Assembly (NCBI GenBank): GCA_028712155.1 | Contig: JAQTQO010000004.1 | Location: 1 to 61,706, forward strand | DNA length: 61,706 bases | Reading direction: 5' to 3' | From: Patescibacteria group bacterium | GTDB lineage: Bacteria > Patescibacteriota > Patescibacteriia > Buchananbacterales > GWA2-38-13 | Shown here: one piece after another, positions 11,288 to 55,254 of the stretch | Numbering within the stretch: the stretch's first letter is position 1 | How the letters are laid out: each line of letters opens with the position of its first letter | Program-made: the position numbers and the translations under genes | Notes under the pieces: model-generated | Database searches by the model: none | Told to the model about the DNA's origin: nothing | What the model saw: the letters and a program-made list of their open reading frames with translations, nothing else

Positions 11288-11398
11288 CTACCGCCTACGG
11301 CTCACCTTGCCGATAAGCATGATTTTATTTTCGGCTTACGGCGGGTTATTTCCCGCTCACCTCGCTGGCGGTCGCAAGCTCCCTTGCTACGGTGGCGG

Positions 11399-11435
11399 AA
11401 AATAAAAAACACTCGGCTCCACGGGAGAGCCGAGT
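11399..11435 (-). terminator. intrinsic terminator
   Basis: ACTCGGCTC/GAGCCGAGT stem. A T-rich run follows on the minus strand. Confidence 0.65.
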
Positions 11436-11469
11436 TGGGAAAGAACACGGGTAGGTCGAAGATCGAGGT

Positions 11470-12393
11470 TCAGCCGGCCAGCGCGAGTTCGCCGGTTCCC
11501 TTGGTGCTGAGCACCGTGTGCACGGCGTAGCAGCCCGCCAAACCGAGATCGCCGAGAGTGCGCTCGACCGAGCCCCGCAAGTGCCGGAGCACGCTGTGGT
11601 ACTGCTCGCGCCGAGCAGGCTTTTGGGGATCCTGGGCGATCGAAACGGCCACGTACGGGTCGGCCACCTGGCGTCTGCCGATGACGCTCGTCGCGATGCC
11701 GAGAGCTTCCGGCAAATGCTCCATGCGGTTGGAGATGGAGAAATGCGTGGCCGCGCCCGGCACGCCCGAACCGACGACGATGCCGTCTTCGATGTGGCGG
11801 TCGAACCGCTCCGGCCCGCGCAAGTAGGCCAGGTTCCCCTGCAGGAACAGGGACAGATCATGGACGATATCCGTGTTCTGGAACCCGGCGTTCCGCAGGA
11901 GACTCTCGCAGTACGCGTCGCCGATCGGGACGTCGGCCGAACCGTCGAGCGTGGTGATGTCACGCTCTCCCATGATGGTGATCGCGCCGGTCGTGACGTT
12001 CAGAGAAACCCACACGGGGTACGTGTTCAGGAGCCGCGCGCAGTTCCGGCGGAAGCTCTTCCAGACGTCCTCCTCTTTGAGTCCGCGCAGCTCGCGGTAG
12101 GCGCAGTCGGTGTGCGTCAGGCACACCGCCAGCTGGCGCATGCCCAGCCGGGTGGCGCGCGCCGCGTCATGGCCGAACCGATACTGGAACGCCTGCGCGT
12201 TGCGGTTGTCAACGAGAGCCGCGAGGATGCGGTGCCATTTGTAGGGACTCGGCCCGCACACCCACTCGCCGCACCGTCCGTCCATGCACGACACAACGTG
12301 CCCGAACATTCGGAACCTCGGCATGGCCGCCGTCTGGGTGGCGGCCGTACGCGTCAGCTGCTGGAGCTGAGCAAACCACGAACTCTGGGTCAT
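11470..12393 (-). CDS. hypothetical protein with a beta-carbonic-anhydrase-like Cys-x-Asp-x-Arg ... His-x-x-Cys signature
   Basis: ATG 12393 has SD GGAGGTG 7 nt upstream. The track start at 12528 is an unsupported extension. Motifs: SCMDGRC and THTDC, 58 residues apart. Confidence 0.6.
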   Translation of the reverse strand: MTQSSWFAQLQQLTRTAATQTAAMPRFRMFGHVVSCMDGRCGEWVCGPSPYKWHRILAALVDNRNAQAFQYRFGHDAARATRLGMRQLAVCLTHTDCAYRELRGLKEEDVWKSFRRNCARLLNTYPVWVSLNVTTGAITIMGERDITTLDGSADVPIGDAYCESLLRNAGFQNTDIVHDLSLFLQGNLAYLRGPERFDRHIEDGIVVGSGVPGAATHFSISNRMEHLPEALGIATSVIGRRQVADPYVAVSIAQDPQKPARREQYHSVLRHLRGSVERTLGDLGLAGCYAVHTVLSTKGTGELALAG

Positions 12394-46512: not shown

Positions 46513-49500
46513 TTATCCGAGCGTCAATAGCTGTTCTTTTAATTTTTCCACCTTGTGCTGCTGCGCAGTTAACTTTTCGCGTTCGGCAGATACCACCGCC
46601 TCGGGCGCGCGTTCGACAAAATTTTTGTTGGAAAGTTTTGCTTCCAGCTGCTTCAGATAATTTTTGGCTTCCTGGAGCTCGCGGGTAATGCGTTCGCGCT
46701 CTTTAGAAACGTCCAGCAACCCGGCAAGCGGCAAATGAATAGTCACTCCGGAAACTACGGCCGATGCCGCCTGCGATGGTTTGGCAAGTTTGGCCTCGAC
46801 GGTCAATTCACTGCAACGGGCAAGCGCGGTAATTACGGGTACTTGCGATTTGAGTAGCCGAGTGTGTTTGCCGGCGGCGATCTGGACGGGAACGCGCTTG
46901 GCCGGCTCAACTTTGGCCTCCGAACGCAGGTTGCGAATCGCCGTAACCACTGATTGTACGAGTGCAAAATCTTTTACTACTTTCGCGCGGCCGGCTTTTG
47001 GCCAGGACTGAATTATCAGGAGTTTTCCTGTACCAAACCGTTCCCACAGATGTTCGGTTACAAACGGCGTGAACGGATGCCACAATTTCAGCACCTGCTG
47101 CAATATATAGGAGAGGATTTTTTCCTTGCCGCCTTCGACCTTGGCGATTTCCAAATACCAGTCGGCGAATTTACTCCACGTGAATTCGTACACGGCTTCA
47201 CCCACAGCGGAAAATTCGTAGTGGTCAAGGCCGGTAGTGGCGCGCTTGATAAGGGCATCAAGCTCCGCCAGAATCCAGCGGTCGGCTAATGTCTTTGGCG
47301 TCGGCGCGGCTTTCACTGGCTTCAACTCCCCCACCGTCATGGAGACAAACCGCGCGATGTTCCAGAGTTTGTTGACGAAATTCCGGTACGACGAAATTTT
47401 TTCCTCCCACAGCTGTGTGTCGTTGCCGGCGGTGGTGCCAATCACCAAGCTGAGTCGCATCGCATCGGCGCCGTACTTTTGAATCATGTCCACCGGGTCG
47501 ATCGCGGTTTCCGGCCGCGACTTGGACATCTTGCGGCCGAGCTTGTCGCGCACCATGCCATGGAAATACACCTGGCGGAACGGCACCTCGCCGACCAAAT
47601 ACGTGCTCATCAAAATCATGCGCGCCACCCAGAAAAACAACAGGTCATAGCCGGTCTCCATTAGATTGGTCGGATGAAACGATTTCAAATCTTTCGTCTT
47701 CTCTGGCCAGCCGAGGGTCGAGAACGTCCACAGCCCGGACGAAAACCACGTATCCAAAGTATCCGGGTCCTGCTGCCACCTGTCCTCCGAAGCTTTAGCG
47801 GAGGAGAGCTCCCCTGCCGGTGCTTGCAGCCCAACGTAAGTTAATTCTCGCAGGGTGTACTTCCAGCCCGGCTGCCAGGATTTCGTTTTTCGCCAATCGG
47901 AAGCTATCGCTTCCTGCCAGGTCTTTCCGTTCAGCAAAACTTCAAGCGCAAACTGCGGCGTTTTGTGGGCAACAATGGCAACGCGCTTGCCGGCGTATTT
48001 TGCGCCAATCTCTTGCAGGAAATTCCGCACGCGGTTTTCAACATCGGTCAAACTTTCGCCTTTCGGATACGATGTATCGATTACGTCGGATTGCATCGCG
48101 TTCACCTTCTTTTCATTTGCGCGCGTGAGTGTCCCGTAGTCGCACTCCCGCAGCCGTTTATCTTGAACAATTTTATACCGATCGCCGAACGCGGTTTCAG
48201 CGGTCGCAACGGCGCGGGATAAATCAGAGCAGAACACGACATCAAAGGTTTGCCCTTTAACCTGGTCTTTCAGCTCCCGGACTTGCCGTACACCAAGTTC
48301 AGACAGTTTGGCGTCGGCCTGACCCGAGGCTTTCTCCGCTTCATTATCCACGGTAGCGCCGTGCACGAAATACGTGATGTCGACCGCCTTTGCCGGACGC
48401 GCATACCACACTGGAATGCGGTGACCAAACCAAATCTGCCGCGAGATGCACCAATCGCGCAGATGATTCATCCAATGAAAATATGTTTTGGTAAAACGGT
48501 CCGGGATTATTTCAACGTCGCCAGCGCGCACGACTTCAGCGGCGCGCTGTTTCAAGGTTTTACCCTTCAATACTTTTGATGGTTTGTTAACGGCCACAAA
48601 CCACTGCTTGGACGGCAGCGGTTCGACCGGCGTACCGCAGCGGTAGCACACCGACAGATTGTGCACGTAATTTTCGTCGATGCGGTCAACCAGACCTTTG
48701 GCCTGGAGTTTGGCGACAATTTCTTCACGACTTCCTCGCGCGTCTTTACCCGCAAACGTTCCGGCCGCTTGCGTCAGTTTTCCGTCTTCGTCAATGATCG
48801 GCACAACCGGCAGCTTGTACTTTTGCGCCAATTCAAAGTCTTCAAAGCTGTGCGCCGGGGTGATGGTCATCGCACCGGTACCAAAATCCTTGTCGGCCAC
48901 TTTGTCGGCGATGACGTGGGCTTTGACTTTGCCCTCGATCCACTCGATCTCCATTTCTTTCCCATGGAGATGTTTGTAGCGTGCGTCGTCGGGATGCACG
49001 ATGATGGTTTTGTCCTGGAATTTCGTTTCCGGCCGCGCCGTACCGATGACCACCGGGCCGTACTTGAAGTAGTAGAATTTCGTTTTCTGCTCCTTGTACT
49101 CCACCTCATCGTCCGAAAGCGTTGAGTGGCAGCGCGGACACCAGTTCACGATGCGGTAACCGCGATAGATCAAACCATCGCGGTGCATCCGCACGAATGC
49201 CTCCGACACCGCGGCTGACAACCCGGCATCCAATGTGTAGCGTTCGCGCGACCAGTCGCACGACGAGCCCATCTTGCGGGTCTGCCGGCGGATGGTGCCT
49301 TGCGAATCAGAAACGAATTTCCTGACCCGCTCCAAAAACGCTTCGCGGCCGAGTTGATTTTTCGTCTGGCCTTCTTTCGCAATTAATTTTTCCACCACCG
49401 CTTGTGTCGCAATCGCCGCATGGTCGGTGCCCGGCAGCCACAAAACTTTACGGCCGCGCATCCGCTGGAACCGCGCCACGATATTCTGCAAGGCAAGCAT

Positions 49501-49692
49501 CACCGCGTGGCCGGCATGCAAAACACCGGTCGCGTTAGGCGGCGGCATGGAAATCGTAAATGGCCTACCTTTAGACACTAAACGATCCGGCGCGAAGTAG
49601 CCGGATTTTTCCCATGTCGCGTAAATGCGGTCCTCAACACCCTGCGGATTGTATGCCGAAGGAATGGAAGATTTTTCCTTGTTTTTTGTCAT
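46513..49692 (-). CDS. valS: valyl-tRNA synthetase carrying an inserted histidine-phosphatase-like domain
   Basis: PPPNATGVLHAGH and KMSKS motifs, CP1 editing domain, C-terminal coiled coil. Insert encoded at 47839-48393. ATG 49692 (the track start is GTG 49698). Confidence 0.95.
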   Translation of the reverse strand: MTKNKEKSSIPSAYNPQGVEDRIYATWEKSGYFAPDRLVSKGRPFTISMPPPNATGVLHAGHAVMLALQNIVARFQRMRGRKVLWLPGTDHAAIATQAVVEKLIAKEGQTKNQLGREAFLERVRKFVSDSQGTIRRQTRKMGSSCDWSRERYTLDAGLSAAVSEAFVRMHRDGLIYRGYRIVNWCPRCHSTLSDDEVEYKEQKTKFYYFKYGPVVIGTARPETKFQDKTIIVHPDDARYKHLHGKEMEIEWIEGKVKAHVIADKVADKDFGTGAMTITPAHSFEDFELAQKYKLPVVPIIDEDGKLTQAAGTFAGKDARGSREEIVAKLQAKGLVDRIDENYVHNLSVCYRCGTPVEPLPSKQWFVAVNKPSKVLKGKTLKQRAAEVVRAGDVEIIPDRFTKTYFHWMNHLRDWCISRQIWFGHRIPVWYARPAKAVDITYFVHGATVDNEAEKASGQADAKLSELGVRQVRELKDQVKGQTFDVVFCSDLSRAVATAETAFGDRYKIVQDKRLRECDYGTLTRANEKKVNAMQSDVIDTSYPKGESLTDVENRVRNFLQEIGAKYAGKRVAIVAHKTPQFALEVLLNGKTWQEAIASDWRKTKSWQPGWKYTLRELTYVGLQAPAGELSSAKASEDRWQQDPDTLDTWFSSGLWTFSTLGWPEKTKDLKSFHPTNLMETGYDLLFFWVARMILMSTYLVGEVPFRQVYFHGMVRDKLGRKMSKSRPETAIDPVDMIQKYGADAMRLSLVIGTTAGNDTQLWEEKISSYRNFVNKLWNIARFVSMTVGELKPVKAAPTPKTLADRWILAELDALIKRATTGLDHYEFSAVGEAVYEFTWSKFADWYLEIAKVEGGKEKILSYILQQVLKLWHPFTPFVTEHLWERFGTGKLLIIQSWPKAGRAKVVKDFALVQSVVTAIRNLRSEAKVEPAKRVPVQIAAGKHTRLLKSQVPVITALARCSELTVEAKLAKPSQAASAVVSGVTIHLPLAGLLDVSKERERITRELQEAKNYLKQLEAKLSNKNFVERAPEAVVSAEREKLTAQQHKVEKLKEQLLTLG

Positions 49693-49716
49693 AACCACGT
49701 GTGCGGTACGGGTTTC

Positions 49717-49880: not shown

Positions 49881-51035
49881 ATGGCATTGACGTTACCCGA
49901 ACAGGTCGCCGCTGCGGTGCAACGCAGCCAGCATCTCCTCATTACCTTCCCCAAGGACCTGCGCCTCGACGCGCTGGCTTCGGCGTTAGCGTTGGGCGCG
50001 GTGCTGCGCCAGCAAGGCAAAGTCCTTGACCTGGTCGCGGACGGTTTTGCGGCGGTTCCTTACGATTTCCTGCCGAAGCTCCACATCACGCCGAAGGTCG
50101 AAGGCTTGCAGCAATTTGTCATCAAGGTCAAACTCAACGATGCGAAGCTCGAACAGTTCAGCTACGACCTCAAGGGCAAAGAGCTCAACATCTACTGCAC
50201 GACGCGCGGCGGTGCGCTCAAACCGCAAGACGTCTCCGCCGAAAGCGGCGGGTTCCGCTACGACCTCATCATTGCCGTCGGCGCTCCCGACCTCGCGTCG
50301 CTGGGAAAAATCTACACCGACCATCGTGAATTTTTCGAACGCACAACGATTGTCAACATCGACCACCAGGCCGGGAACGAACACTACGGGCAAATCAATG
50401 CCGTTGACTTGAATGCGGCTGCGACCGCCGAGGTTGTGTACGATCTCCTGCCGGCACTCCGCCCGGCGGCGACGCCGGAACCGCCGCTGGACCGCGCCGT
50501 GGCGACCGCCCTGCTGGCCGGAATGATTTCCGCCACGCACAGCTTCCGCAGCAGCAAAGTGACGGCGAAAACTCTGCGCATCGCCAGCGCCCTGGTGGCT
50601 GCCGGCGCCGACCGCGACACGATTATCCGGACGCTCTACCAGAGCCATTCCGTTTCCACCCTCAAACTCTGGGGGCGCACGCTCGCCCGGCTGCGCAGCG
50701 ACGTGAACGGCAAGCTGGTGTGGGCGCCGGTGCCGGAATCGGATTTTCTCGAGTCCAGCGCCAGCGCCGACGACCTGCCCGGCGTGACCGACGCGTTGAT
50801 TACGACGCTGCCGGCCGCCGTGGTGGTGGTCCTCCTCATCCAGGAAGGGCCGGACGTCATGGTACGGCTCTCGAGCCTGCGGCACTTCCACGCGCTGCAG
50901 CTCGCCCGCCAATTCCCCGCGCATGGCGACCAAAGCTCCGCCACATGGAAAATGCCGCAGCGCACCCTGCCCGACGCCGAGCGCGAGGTGATCGCCGCGA
51001 TCAAAGAAAATCTCGAAGAGCTCGAGCAGATATAA
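49881..51035 (+). CDS. NrnA-like DHH/DHHA1 family protein with degenerate catalytic motifs
   Basis: NIDHQAGNEHYG in place of DHH. Overall NrnA-like layout. Confidence 0.5.
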   Translation: MALTLPEQVAAAVQRSQHLLITFPKDLRLDALASALALGAVLRQQGKVLDLVADGFAAVPYDFLPKLHITPKVEGLQQFVIKVKLNDAKLEQFSYDLKGKELNIYCTTRGGALKPQDVSAESGGFRYDLIIAVGAPDLASLGKIYTDHREFFERTTIVNIDHQAGNEHYGQINAVDLNAAATAEVVYDLLPALRPAATPEPPLDRAVATALLAGMISATHSFRSSKVTAKTLRIASALVAAGADRDTIIRTLYQSHSVSTLKLWGRTLARLRSDVNGKLVWAPVPESDFLESSASADDLPGVTDALITTLPAAVVVVLLIQEGPDVMVRLSSLRHFHALQLARQFPAHGDQSSATWKMPQRTLPDAEREVIAAIKENLEELEQI

Positions 51036-51128: not shown

Positions 51129-51136
51129 ATAGGTGT

Positions 51137-51209
51137 GGGCCCGTAGCTCAATGGTTAGAGCATCCGGCTTATATCCGGCAGGTTGGGGGTTCGAGTCCCT
51201 CCGGGCCCA
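51137..51209 (+). tRNA. tRNA-Ile, anticodon UAU (no encoded CCA)
   Basis: Hand-folded cloverleaf. 7-bp acceptor GGGCCCG/CGGGCCC, D arm GCTC/GAGC, anticodon loop CTTATAT, T arm GGGGG-TTCGAGT-CCCTC. Confidence 0.85.
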
Positions 51210-51232
51210 ATTTCAATAATTGTCCTAACGAA

Positions 51233-51874
51233 ATGAATAAACGAAAAGTCATTCAACACATAGCTAGAACGGTTCGGCTACGCCTCCGAAACGAAGGAAC
51301 CGGGCACGACTGGTGGCATGTGTATCGGGTATGGAAGATGACGCAACGCATTGGAAAGAAAGAAGGTGTCGACCTGTTTGTGGTTGAGCTGGCCGCGTTG
51401 CTCCACGACCTGGCGGATTGGAAATTCCATAGTGCGGCTGCCGGGCCCAGACTGGCCCGGCAAATTTTGTCGAAACGAAAGGTACCTCCCGATGTTACCC
51501 GTCATGTTTGTGAAATCATTTCGACCATCTCATTTAAAGGAGTACGAGCAGAGAAAAAAATACGAACACTGGAGGGTAAGGTCGTGCAAGACGCCGATCG
51601 ATTGGACGCACTGGGTGCGATTGGCATCGCCCGCGCCTTCGCGGTCGGCGGGTATCTCCATCGATCGATTTACATTCCCACACAAAAACCCTCATTGCGT
51701 CTAACGAAAAAAGCGACCCTCAACGGCACCACCATCAATCATTTCTACGAGAAATTGTTACTGCTCAAGGATCGCATGCACACGAGAACTGCGAAAAACT
51801 TGGCCGGGAAGCGCCATGCGTACATGGAAACGTACGTAAAAAGATTTTTTCAGGAATGGGACGGCAAGATATAA
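51233..51874 (+). CDS. HD domain phosphohydrolase
   Basis: HDWWH, LLHDLADWK and QDADRLDALGAIGIARAF motifs. Confidence 0.85.
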   Translation: MNKRKVIQHIARTVRLRLRNEGTGHDWWHVYRVWKMTQRIGKKEGVDLFVVELAALLHDLADWKFHSAAAGPRLARQILSKRKVPPDVTRHVCEIISTISFKGVRAEKKIRTLEGKVVQDADRLDALGAIGIARAFAVGGYLHRSIYIPTQKPSLRLTKKATLNGTTINHFYEKLLLLKDRMHTRTAKNLAGKRHAYMETYVKRFFQEWDGKI

Positions 51875-52623: not shown

Positions 52624-53181
52624 ATGAAAAACCGCGTCATCATCGTTCACGGCTGGAGCGGCTACCCGGAAGAAGGGTGGTTCCCCTGGCTCAAGCGGGA
52701 ACTCCAGCAGCGCGGATTCACTGTCGATGTGCCGCAGCTGCCGAAAGCGGCCACACCCAACCGCAAAGAGTGGATCGCGGCGCTGACGAAAGTCATTGGC
52801 AAACCGAATCGCCACACGTTCTTGGTCGGTCACAGCCTCGGCTGCTACACCATTCTCAAATACATCGAACGCCTGCGGTGGTTTCAGCGGACGGGCGGCG
52901 CCGTGCTGGTCGCGGGGTTTGCCAGTCTCAACATCCTCCCGCTCAACAATTTCTATTCCGCGCCGCTCGACTGGAAAAGAATCAAACGGCACGCCGGCCG
53001 CATCACCGCCATCAATTCGACGAAAGATCCGTACGTGCCGTTGGCCAAAGGCGAGGAGCTCCGCGACCAGCTCGGCGCAAAGCACGTCGTCCTCGACGGG
53101 TACCGGCACTTCAGCGGCCACGAAGGTGTCAAAGAGCTTCCGGCGGCGCTCGATGCCGTGCTGGAGATAACCGAACCGTAA
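52624..53181 (+). CDS. RBBP9/YdeN-family alpha/beta serine hydrolase
   Basis: VIIVHGW, GHSLGC nucleophile elbow, C-terminal GHF. Confidence 0.85.
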   Translation: MKNRVIIVHGWSGYPEEGWFPWLKRELQQRGFTVDVPQLPKAATPNRKEWIAALTKVIGKPNRHTFLVGHSLGCYTILKYIERLRWFQRTGGAVLVAGFASLNILPLNNFYSAPLDWKRIKRHAGRITAINSTKDPYVPLAKGEELRDQLGAKHVVLDGYRHFSGHEGVKELPAALDAVLEITEP

Positions 53182-55177: not shown

Positions 55178-55254
55178 GGGCGGTTAGCTCAGTTGGTTAG
55201 AGCGCGTCGTTGACGTCGACGATGTCGGGGGTTCGAGTCCCTCACCGCCCACCA
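55178..55254 (+). tRNA. tRNA-Val, anticodon GAC (CCA encoded)
   Basis: Acceptor GGGCGGT/ACCGCCC, anticodon stem CGTCG/CGACG, loop TTGACGT, T arm GGGGG-TTCGAGT-CCCTC, ACCA end. Confidence 0.9.

Follow-up and report, generated by a model that had tools for sequence, protein, structure and literature searches.

A histidine-phosphatase domain of a free-standing VHG-type family carried inside the valyl-tRNA synthetase of a Patescibacteria group bacterium

Aminoacyl-tRNA synthetases (aaRS) are among the most conserved enzymes, and the study of accessory domains on them has mostly led to new biology, e.g., in editing, signalling or the assembly of complexes. The valyl-tRNA synthetase (ValRS) gene valS on contig JAQTQO010000004.1 of a Patescibacteria group bacterium (GenBank assembly GCA_028712155.1) raises the question of why a synthetase should carry a histidine-phosphatase domain in the middle of its catalytic domain, where this domain comes from, and what it might do there. 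The DNA analysed, called the window in the following, is the stretch of 61,706 nt from position 1 to 61,706 of this contig (forward strand). A previous interpretation of the window from its letters and open reading frames, called the sequence-only reading below, had proposed a PGAM-like domain inside ValRS; here, this proposal was followed up with family models, structure prediction, homolog surveys and comparison of gene neighbourhoods.

The open reading frame of valS covers 1061 amino acids (aa) when read from a GTG, and gene callers take an ATG two codons further on, giving 1059 aa. In a Pfam search of the whole protein, tRNA-synt_1 was matched as a split domain (E = 1e-130), together with Anticodon_1 and Val_tRNA-synt_C (E = 2e-15), and His_Phos_1 (PF00300) falls between both halves of the catalytic domain with an E-value of 4.2e-30 and 105 bits (cutoff 21.7). 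Using the insert alone, the same model reached 1.2e-31 (up to 110 bits). The linker between the blocks WFGHRIPVW and DPDTLDTWFSS is 212 aa long in the window ValRS compared with 19–70 aa in canonical relatives, and the same two aligned blocks are only about 17 residues apart in ValRS of Thermus thermophilus. The limits of the domain, residues 438–616, were set by aligning the protein with orthologs that lack the insert and with free-standing homologs, and its nucleotide boundaries were mapped by tblastn (Table 1). Compared with the nearest insert-free proteins, both junctions are clean (...IPVWYARPAK / AVDITYF...GWKYTL / RELTYVGLQAPAG...).

The place of the insertion is connective peptide 3 (CP3) of the synthetase. 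The upstream arm of the hairpin aligns to residues ~405–425 of T. thermophilus ValRS, which hold a CxxC, and several relatives have a CxxC...CxxC pair flanking the phosphatase domain. Since these cysteines lie on either side, the domain is located at the tip of the CP3/Zn-ribbon hairpin. In the AlphaFold2 (AF2) model, residues 430–433 and 619–622 form the hairpin strands, and residues 439–445 and 612–616 form the first and last strands of the domain, so that the connectors measure just 5 residues at the start and 2 at the end. Such short connectors suggest a rigid graft. The returning arm contains ten further residues, ELSSAKASED, which are lineage-specific, lie outside the interval of the sequence-only reading and are absent even from the closely related protein P0002. 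Here, the predicted local distance difference test score (pLDDT) of the model is about 59 (residues 630–640), and the same sub-site is occupied by a Ser_hydrolase domain in P0039 and P0057.

Table 1. Coordinates in the window of valS, its embedded domain and motifs, and three neighbouring genes.
Feature	Position	Strand	Basis
valS, ValRS of 1061 aa hosting the phosphatase domain	46513..49698	-	Open reading frame, NCBIfam, Pfam, AF2
HIGH-type motif HAGH, residues 61-64	49507..49518	-	Motif position
Upstream arm of the CP3/Zn hairpin (WFGHRIPVWYARPAK), residues 423-437	48388..48432	-	Anchor motif, AF2, alignment
Histidine-phosphatase domain (VHG-type, branch 1), residues 438-616	47851..48387	-	Pfam, tblastn, alignments, AF2
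V445-H446-G447, nucleophile-His motif, Val in place of the RHG arginine	48358..48366	-	Motif position, family alignment
SDLSRA (491-496) with R495, second conserved phosphate-pocket arginine	48211..48228	-	R in 36/36
RLRE (515-518) with E518, putative general acid/base; R515 and R517 invariant	48145..48156	-	E in 36/36
VAHKTPQ (576-582) with H578, second catalytic histidine	47953..47973	-	H in 36/36
DWRK, start of the family-specific C-terminal tail DWRKxKxWQPGWxY, with R603	47887..47898	-	Homolog alignments
Downstream hairpin arm and Rossmann return (RELTYVGLQAPAG...RWQQ and DPDTLDTWFSS), residues 617-654	47737..47850	-	Junction alignment, AF2
Extra 10 aa ELSSAKASED in the returning arm, residues 630-639	47782..47811	-	Junction alignment
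KMSKS motif, residues 723-727	47518..47532	-	Motif position and homolog alignment
DHH-family phosphoesterase gene, divergent from valS	49881..51035	+	Pfam DHH, E = 4e-7
HD-domain phosphohydrolase gene	51233..51874	+	Pfam HD, E = 4.9e-12
PF06821 serine hydrolase, free-standing	52624..53181	+	Pfam, E = 5.9e-25

When the embedded domain was modelled alone with AF2, a pLDDT of 96.8 was obtained. Foldseek assigned this model to known histidine phosphatases with a probability of 1.00 and TM-scores of 0.79–0.83 to CobC (6E4B), PspA (4IJ5) and PhoE (1H2E), at 23–25% sequence identity. Based on these models, the embedded domain is predicted to have the canonical histidine-phosphatase alpha/beta fold and to fold on its own. 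It could be assigned to none of the named families, as the best NCBIfam matches of the insert (CobC, PspA, GpmB and dPGM models) all remain below their cutoffs. An identity as dPGM was rejected, with 39.7 bits against 81.7 for TIGR01258, scores of other dPGM models far lower than their cutoffs, and a length of 179 aa against about 230–250 aa; likewise rejected was an identity as CobC or PspA (TIGR03162 for CobC, 83.5 bits against 162.9; NF045917, 61.8 against 350). PADLOC defence-system models matched neither the domain nor the serine hydrolase and the ~125-aa module described below, and no second copy of the phosphatase domain was found in the 61,706-nt window.

The synthetase surrounding the insert was examined in the same way. 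NCBIfam valS equivalogs score above cutoff (NF004349, 1002 bits against 704; TIGR00422, 936 against 612), and the AF2 model of the whole protein has a pLDDT of 91.6, a predicted TM-score (pTM) of 0.85 and a TM-score of 0.83 to the ValRS structure 1GAX. H61, G63 and H64 of the HAGH motif are invariant among 89 ValRS homologs, and the editing-site aspartate D287, which aligns to D279 of T. thermophilus, is kept and invariant among the homologs as well. By these features, the ValRS body outside the insert is intact and canonical. Moreover, the window valS lies at the same DHH-valS-tyrS locus as an insert-free ortholog (61.7 kb of the genome are covered), which suggests that it is the housekeeping ValRS copy.

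The observation made in the sequence-only reading is thereby confirmed, and its interpretation is supported in part. A histidine-phosphatase domain does reside within ValRS, recognized by its Pfam family at high significance and by its PGAM-type fold, which distinguishes it from an ordinary ValRS insertion; all the phosphatase motifs quoted for it are present (VHG, SDLSRA, RLRE and VAHKTPQ), and the canonical linker is indeed short. The interval given for the domain, 47839–48393 (residues 436–620), contains it, with limits that are narrowed by the alignments. The insert was also said to be in frame and of native composition, which holds true: the open reading frame is continuous, and the GC content at third codon positions (GC3) of the insert is 0.61 against 0.55–0.78 in blocks of the ValRS body, with total GC content also in the range of the gene. 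Thus, composition gave no signal of a recent foreign origin, as GC3 lies within the body range. Finally, the synthetase motifs on both sides (HAGH, KMSKS and the editing aspartate) had been described as intact, and they are.

One feature of the ValRS body stands apart. Residues 355–425 (48424–48636, minus strand), just upstream of the insert, are unusually divergent from P0002 and P0003, with 55–70% identity to these proteins, which are otherwise 93–97% identical, and a ratio of nonsynonymous to synonymous substitution rates (dN/dS) of 0.31 compared with 0.06 elsewhere. The patch partly resembles the more distant Buchananbacteria-type ValRS P0016 and could be the trace of a recombination event or a segment under relaxed constraint. 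The ValRS of P0002 (L010, 8001–11330) has peculiarities of its own, namely DWCIAGHIGFGQRIRVWY in place of the DWCISRQIWFGHRIPVWY of all other ValRS and a CP2 region whose N-terminal part looks odd; such features could stem from errors of sequencing or assembly, or mark a degenerating copy.

To find the origin of the domain, databases were searched with the insert only. This yielded 6094 matches, of which the best 120 are all free-standing PF00300 proteins of about 180 aa from Patescibacteria and Aenigmatarchaeota (DPANN archaea), 54–61% identical over ~100% of the insert. These proteins have in common the motifs ITYFVHGTTxDNE, FCSDLKRA, DKRLRECNYG, PNGESY, AIVAHKAPQ and a C-terminal DWRKxKxWQPGWEY, and typically overhang the insert by one residue at each end. 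Because of this full coverage and the matching ends, we conclude that the ValRS insert represents a whole gene of this VHG-type family, minus the initiator methionine and about one C-terminal residue. In a profile search of 1.84 billion representatives, 190 clusters (at 50% identity) were recovered at E ≤ 1e-30, and the family is compact and highly conserved, with a mean column identity of 66%. Free-standing members, e.g., P0153 of a Parcubacteria and P0196 of an Aenigmarchaeota metagenome-assembled genome, are automatically annotated as PhoE, dPGM or “histidine phosphatase family protein”. No experimental characterization of free VHG-type phosphatases was found in the literature searched. In a neighbour-joining tree of the domain, which carries no support values, the ValRS copies are mixed among free and FtsY-linked ones.

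Is the embedded copy equipped for catalysis? The catalytic cluster of the superfamily consists of two histidines and two arginines, is completed by a glutamate, and has been called invariant (PMC5501728). Residue conservation was assessed in 237 family members, among them 36 ValRS-embedded and 171 free copies. The window domain retains H446, N452, R495, E518 and H578 and consequently has the nucleophile histidine, the second arginine, the second histidine and the acid/base glutamate of branch-1 histidine phosphatases, and lacks the arginine of the RHG motif, where V445 is found. Domain positions H9, N15, R58, R78, E81 and H141 are each kept in all 36 embedded copies; among free copies, the catalytic set of His, Arg, Glu and Asn is kept in ~98–100%, with the nucleophile histidine present in 169 of 171. 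Domain position 8, corresponding to V445, is occupied by V, A, T, S, P or I, and by arginine in none of the 237 members. For this reason, the exchange of arginine for valine, noted in the sequence-only reading, is an old and selected trait of the family rather than a peculiarity of this fusion or decay after it. Candidates for stand-ins of the lost arginine are two family-specific arginines of the domain, R119 and R166. The latter (R603 of ValRS, in the DWRK tail) is found in 32 of 36 ValRS copies and in 149 of 171 free copies.

To see how widespread the arrangement is, we surveyed ValRS homologs, clustered at 90% identity and drawn from assemblies of NCBI, JGI, ENA and Logan. Among the best 120, PF00300 lies inside 45, and those with a name all come from Patescibacteria; several of these proteins are called just “class I tRNA ligase family protein” by NCBI. 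The distribution is patchy. The ValRS bodies nearest to that of the window, P0003 (85% identity), P0004 (80%) and P0005–P0007 (~71%), are without insert. The P0004 locus is syntenic with the window, comprising the DHH gene, valS, tyrS and a gene for a 482-aa membrane protein, and the P0003 locus shows the same DHH-valS arrangement; the insert is absent from both. P0002 shares insert and synteny with the window. Since the nearest orthologs, at the same locus, are without the insert, aminoacylation evidently needs no phosphatase domain. In a neighbour-joining tree of the ValRS body, again without support values, insert-bearing proteins make up a single large group, with several others scattered singly among insert-free clades, and close relatives are thus separated by gain or loss of the insert.

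The strength of selection was estimated with the Nei–Gojobori method by comparing the window gene (P0001) with P0002 (DNA of locus L010). The dN/dS of the insert is 0.077 and that of the body 0.076; with dS at about 1, the absolute values are rough, and the comparison of insert and body is fair. All six key residues are retained between the two proteins. In deep comparisons, the identity of the insert equals or exceeds that of the body, e.g., 65% against 51% for P0001 and P0012. As dN/dS is low and matches that of the body, the embedded domain is maintained by selection and represents, as supposed in the sequence-only reading, a functional fusion rather than junk. The lack of known precedents remarked on there holds insofar as no published description was found, but with more than a third of the best ValRS homologs carrying PF00300 (45/120), it is no one-off. 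Nor is the domain specific to ValRS, being a copy of an abundant free protein of ~180 aa which is also found in an isoleucyl-tRNA synthetase (IleRS), in FtsY-like proteins and in metabolic fusions (see below).

The hairpin itself turned out to be a hotspot of insertion, the length of the site ranging from 19 to 712 aa among ValRS relatives. Composite inserts of 340–712 aa contain a VHG phosphatase, a ~125-aa module, a second, canonical RHG phosphatase and a Ser_hydrolase in series. Inserts of 142–160 aa contain the ~125-aa module (P0054, P0051, P0058, P0059, P0066, P0074, P0076 and P0097) or a second unassigned module, and P0046 and P0037 have a different small module at the site, which is CxxC-flanked in P0046. 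The 108-aa insert of P0110 matched no Pfam family. The ~125-aa module (KxWDLKIYG...TIETRAG...YGIW) also occurs within P0022, P0027, P0039, P0042, P0057 and P0107. It has no Pfam match and a marginal profile match (E = 3e-4) to PH0355, PF0455 and PF0469 of Pyrococcus, which are presumably ASCH/PUA-like, and the module itself is putatively ASCH-like. In P0090, CP3 holds an RHG-type phosphatase, while another insertion site (residues 647–732), between DTWFSS and KMSKS, is filled by a Pfam ASCH domain. The RHG-type phosphatase inserted in P0068 reaches at most 36% identity and 77 bits with the VHG family, but 44% and 115 bits with P0389, which belongs to a different free family of CPR (candidate phyla radiation) bacteria. 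Since this insert comes from another free family, at least two phosphatase subfamilies have been captured at one ValRS hairpin; the case for multiple captures rests more firmly on this comparison than on tree topology. A variable topology and zinc content of CP3 has been described for the homologous IleRS (PMC7191050).

ValRS is not the only internal host of the VHG-type domain. In IleRS P0258, it follows KMSKS and precedes the anticodon-binding domain, and another part of this protein holds a PF06821 Ser_hydrolase. Seven FtsY-like GTPases of the signal recognition particle type (P0245, P0247, P0249, P0255, P0260, P0263 and P0268) carry it in their low-complexity N-terminal region between long low-complexity linkers, and P0249 contains a PF06821 Ser_hydrolase in addition. 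Further VHG-type fusions involve HD/YfbR-like phosphohydrolases (P0241 and P0252), a dCTP-deaminase-like domain and Hydrolase_4, and in more distant branches the phosphatase is fused to NUDIX, GNAT or a Pol-beta-type nucleotidyltransferase. A further apparent host, P0309, in which residues 1–300 of GroEL are followed by the phosphatase, was rejected as a probable assembly chimera, as the join lies in the middle of the phosphatase domain at SDLERA.

The genes around valS were inspected for hints of a specific function. DHH, HD and PF06821 genes all lie within 3.5 kb of valS in the window, and the DHH gene next to valS is kept in all orthologous loci (L006, L010 and L011). At the P0002 locus, the same Ser_hydrolase is encoded (74% identity), and in the fetched flanks of the insert-free orthologous loci L006 and L011 neither phosphatase nor Ser_hydrolase was detected. 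The two are, hence, either both present or both absent at the valS locus. They are also joined within one protein in ValRS P0039 and P0057, IleRS P0258 and the FtsY-like P0249, and free phosphatase genes abut PF06821 homologs in L001 and L004. These associations make the PF06821 serine hydrolase a probable functional partner of the phosphatase. The context of free phosphatase genes (L001, L004, L007) comprises adjoining Ser_hydrolase and Hydrolase_4 genes, at times with ASCH upstream and NUDIX downstream; other neighbours are DHH/DHHA1, NYN and TruB (the latter two in L008), and an archaeal free gene has two thymidylate-kinase genes next to it. A class II aaRS gene is found one or two genes from the free phosphatase in three of five bacterial loci (L004, L007, L008), a proximity which is only suggestive, since two of the three loci may share synteny.

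Some further observations concern this neighbourhood. Between valS and tyrS of the P0002 relative, locus L010 contains a gene of the DUF559/MTES_1575 type (Vsr-like endonuclease fold; 11381–11752), which is absent from the window and from the P0004 locus. ARAGORN predicts a tRNA-Ile with anticodon TAT (UAU) between the DHH and HD genes (51136–51210, plus strand). In most bacteria, AUA is decoded by a lysidine-modified CAU tRNA, so that a UAU tRNA-Ile encoded in the genome is uncommon; it matters for recognition by IleRS. A tRNA-Val(GAC), cognate of ValRS, is located at 55178–55254 (plus strand), ~5.5 kb from valS. The GC content peaks at 0.68–0.69 at 50450–50900, inside the DHH gene, compared with 0.57 for the window overall.

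How, then, is a phosphatase inside a synthetase to be understood? We favour, with a probability of roughly 55%, an autonomous VHG-type phosphatase which sits in a permissive, variable surface hairpin of ValRS and does the same job as its free relatives, ValRS being its carrier. The gene context points in this direction rather than to the roles suggested in the sequence-only reading, on tRNA 3′-phosphates or in regulation. The module would act as it does when free-standing, i.e., as an autonomous phosphomonoesterase with a phospho-His446 intermediate and a small phosphorylated metabolite as its substrate. The substrate would most likely belong to nucleotide or RNA-breakdown salvage, because the recurring partners are phosphoesterases, nucleotide enzymes and one serine hydrolase; CPR and DPANN organisms presumably depend on such salvage. 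The products of the genes beside valS, a PF06821 serine hydrolase and HD and DHH phosphoesterases, probably act jointly with the phosphatase. As an essential and constitutively expressed protein with a permissive site, ValRS would provide co-expression and genome compaction, and aminoacylation would neither depend on the phosphatase domain nor be altered by it. Several points weigh against this interpretation. Without the RHG arginine, the chemistry may differ or the activity may be low. The assignment to nucleotide salvage is guilt by association, drawn from a handful of loci and fusions. All internal hosts found (ValRS, IleRS, FtsY-like) belong to translation or protein targeting and, taken together with the free copies near aaRS genes, could mean a real link to translation instead of random parking. 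Two phosphatase subfamilies in one hairpin could reflect selection for a phosphatase at this place, and the short connectors in the model would hold the domain rigidly, unlike a loose passenger.

The main rival is a phosphatase coupled to the synthetase or to translation, which would be rigidly mounted on CP3 and act on tRNA or on a translation-linked substrate. Examples are removal of 3′- or 2′,3′-cyclic phosphates for tRNA-end repair and recharging, hydrolysis of a nucleotide by-product, or reversal of an inhibitory phosphorylation of the synthetase by a toxin kinase, with the Ser_hydrolase and the ~125-aa module supplying ester-hydrolysis and RNA-binding functions. Phosphatase, Ser_hydrolase and ~125-aa module do travel together in ValRS, IleRS and FtsY-like hosts, the ValRS hairpin took up two or more phosphatase subfamilies in separate events, connectors are just 5 and 2 residues long, and free copies lie one or two genes from aaRS in L004, L007 and L008, with NYN and TruB adjoining in the last. 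Without the RHG arginine, the pocket would have a lower charge and might accommodate a phosphate that is mono-anionic (diester or cyclic). On the other hand, the closest orthologs manage without the domain, most family members by far are free-standing, fusions to unrelated metabolic enzymes (HD, dCTP-deaminase-like, NUDIX, GNAT) exist as well, and the FtsY-like copies lie between long low-complexity linkers with no defined functional site; moreover, we know of no histidine-phosphatase member which acts on RNA ends. Hence, we hold coupling to be rather unlikely, though worth keeping in view. A broader version, for which we see still less chance and which we offer as a speculation, is that a set of small CPR/DPANN modules (VHG phosphatase, PF06821 hydrolase and ~125-aa module) has been built repeatedly and independently into the translation and targeting machinery (ValRS CP3, IleRS, FtsY) as an on-board repair or housekeeping activity, its arginine-less VHG site being adapted to non-canonical phosphates. 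Such an activity would, for example, rid tRNA ends of 3′- or cyclic phosphates and of aberrant acyl groups, or reverse toxin-kinase phosphorylation of the synthetase.

A pseudo-phosphatase without catalysis, sensing a phosphorylated metabolite and acting allosterically on ValRS or just stabilizing the protein, would agree with the family-wide absence of the RHG arginine from a cluster called invariant (PMC5501728). Proteins of this fold which became ligand binders after losing catalytic residues are documented (PMC10728186) and provide precedents, and rigid mounting on the catalytic domain would permit allosteric transmission. However, the documented binders lost their histidines, whereas both histidines, the second arginine, the glutamate and the asparagine are found in all 36 embedded copies, and a family which is mostly free-standing or fused to hydrolases fits an enzyme better than a ValRS-specific sensor. 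We judge this explanation improbable. A neutral passenger, trapped by a ratchet because its removal requires a precise deletion, and selected for folding only with its activity being irrelevant, could account for the patchy distribution and for a hypervariable site in a surface hairpin, filled by unrelated sequences of 19–712 aa. Nevertheless, it is quite improbable given that dN/dS in the insert is the same as in the essential body (0.077), that catalytic residues are conserved in 36/36 embedded copies beyond what foldability needs, and that insert-free close relatives prove the site viable without the domain. Least of all do we expect an artefact of assembly or of gene calling (two genes merged), or an intein or mobile element that the mature protein has lost, and the chance we would give to any of these is close to nil. 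An insert with patchy occurrence in a conserved region of an essential gene is reminiscent of inteins, and P0309 looks chimeric. Mis-assembly or merged genes were rejected, as one reading frame runs through the insert and both ValRS halves, 45 independent clusters have the arrangement and AF2 returns one confident, continuous protein. An intein or homing element was rejected as well: no Hint or endonuclease domain is present, His_Phos_1 is the sole significant Pfam match in the insert, there is no room for such domains because the 179-aa phosphatase accounts for essentially all extra residues, and the junctions (...PAK/AVDI... and ...YTL/RELT...) are not intein-like.

Dozens of CPR lineages have a complete second enzyme in the CP3 hairpin of ValRS, selected as strongly as the synthetase itself. 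Further, the locus draws attention to a very abundant and highly conserved CPR/DPANN phosphatase subfamily without the “invariant” RHG arginine, and the partner genes (PF06821, HD, DHH, NUDIX, dCTP-deaminase-like) offer a testable entry to nucleotide salvage in host-dependent organisms. It also illustrates a mode of genome evolution in which small enzymes are nested in permissive loops of the essential proteins ValRS, IleRS and FtsY, with repeated gain or loss among close relatives. For annotation, it points to a problem, as the free enzyme is labelled PhoE, dPGM or CobC although it falls under the thresholds of those families.

Synthetases with extra domains and the histidine-phosphatase fold as such are already known. 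A full-text search of the literature returned no description of a ValRS-phosphatase fusion or of the VHG family, and a paper on archaeal fusions mentions as its sole phosphatase case a Sat-histidine phosphatase fusion. What appears to be undescribed is a whole phosphatase in ValRS CP3 across many CPR lineages, the arginine-less VHG subfamily, and the pattern of nesting in ValRS, IleRS and FtsY. Among known systems, CPR bacteria have been proposed to use domain fusion and swapping in aaRS genes (Mukai et al., PMC5370408), and the B2-domain-TyrRS fusions of CPR (PMC5370408) follow the same concept, whereas the insertion in the window is internal, in a connective peptide of the catalytic domain. 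The IleRS N-acetyltransferase domain-containing family (NF040702) likewise combines an aaRS with an unrelated domain, with another partner and at another site, and the window ValRS is not a member (193 bits against 1999). A CobC-like phosphatase fused to a nucleic-acid enzyme is found in the RNase H/acid phosphatase of the Rv2228c type (NF005567; 71 bits for the insert against a cutoff of 326), but there the fusion is end-to-end and the motif a canonical RHG, in contrast to internal insertion and VHG in the window. The position corresponds to the CP3/Zn hairpin of class Ia synthetases (1GAX; IleRS CP3), between the GHxIPxW strand and DxLDTWFSS, which normally comprises 20–70 residues and here holds a whole 179-aa enzyme. 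PhoE (1H2E), the alpha-ribazole phosphatase CobC (6E4B) and the phosphoserine phosphatase PspA/iPSP (4IJ5) resemble the domain in fold and size class (~180–210 aa) and share with it the nucleophile histidine, second arginine, glutamate and second histidine. Unlike them, it is only 23–25% identical to these enzymes, has valine before the nucleophile histidine and is embedded in another enzyme, and its DWRK...WQPGWxY tail brings the C-terminus back beside the N-terminus. Free CPR/DPANN VHG-type phosphatases have the same motifs and the same ends as the insert, and differ from it in being separate genes.

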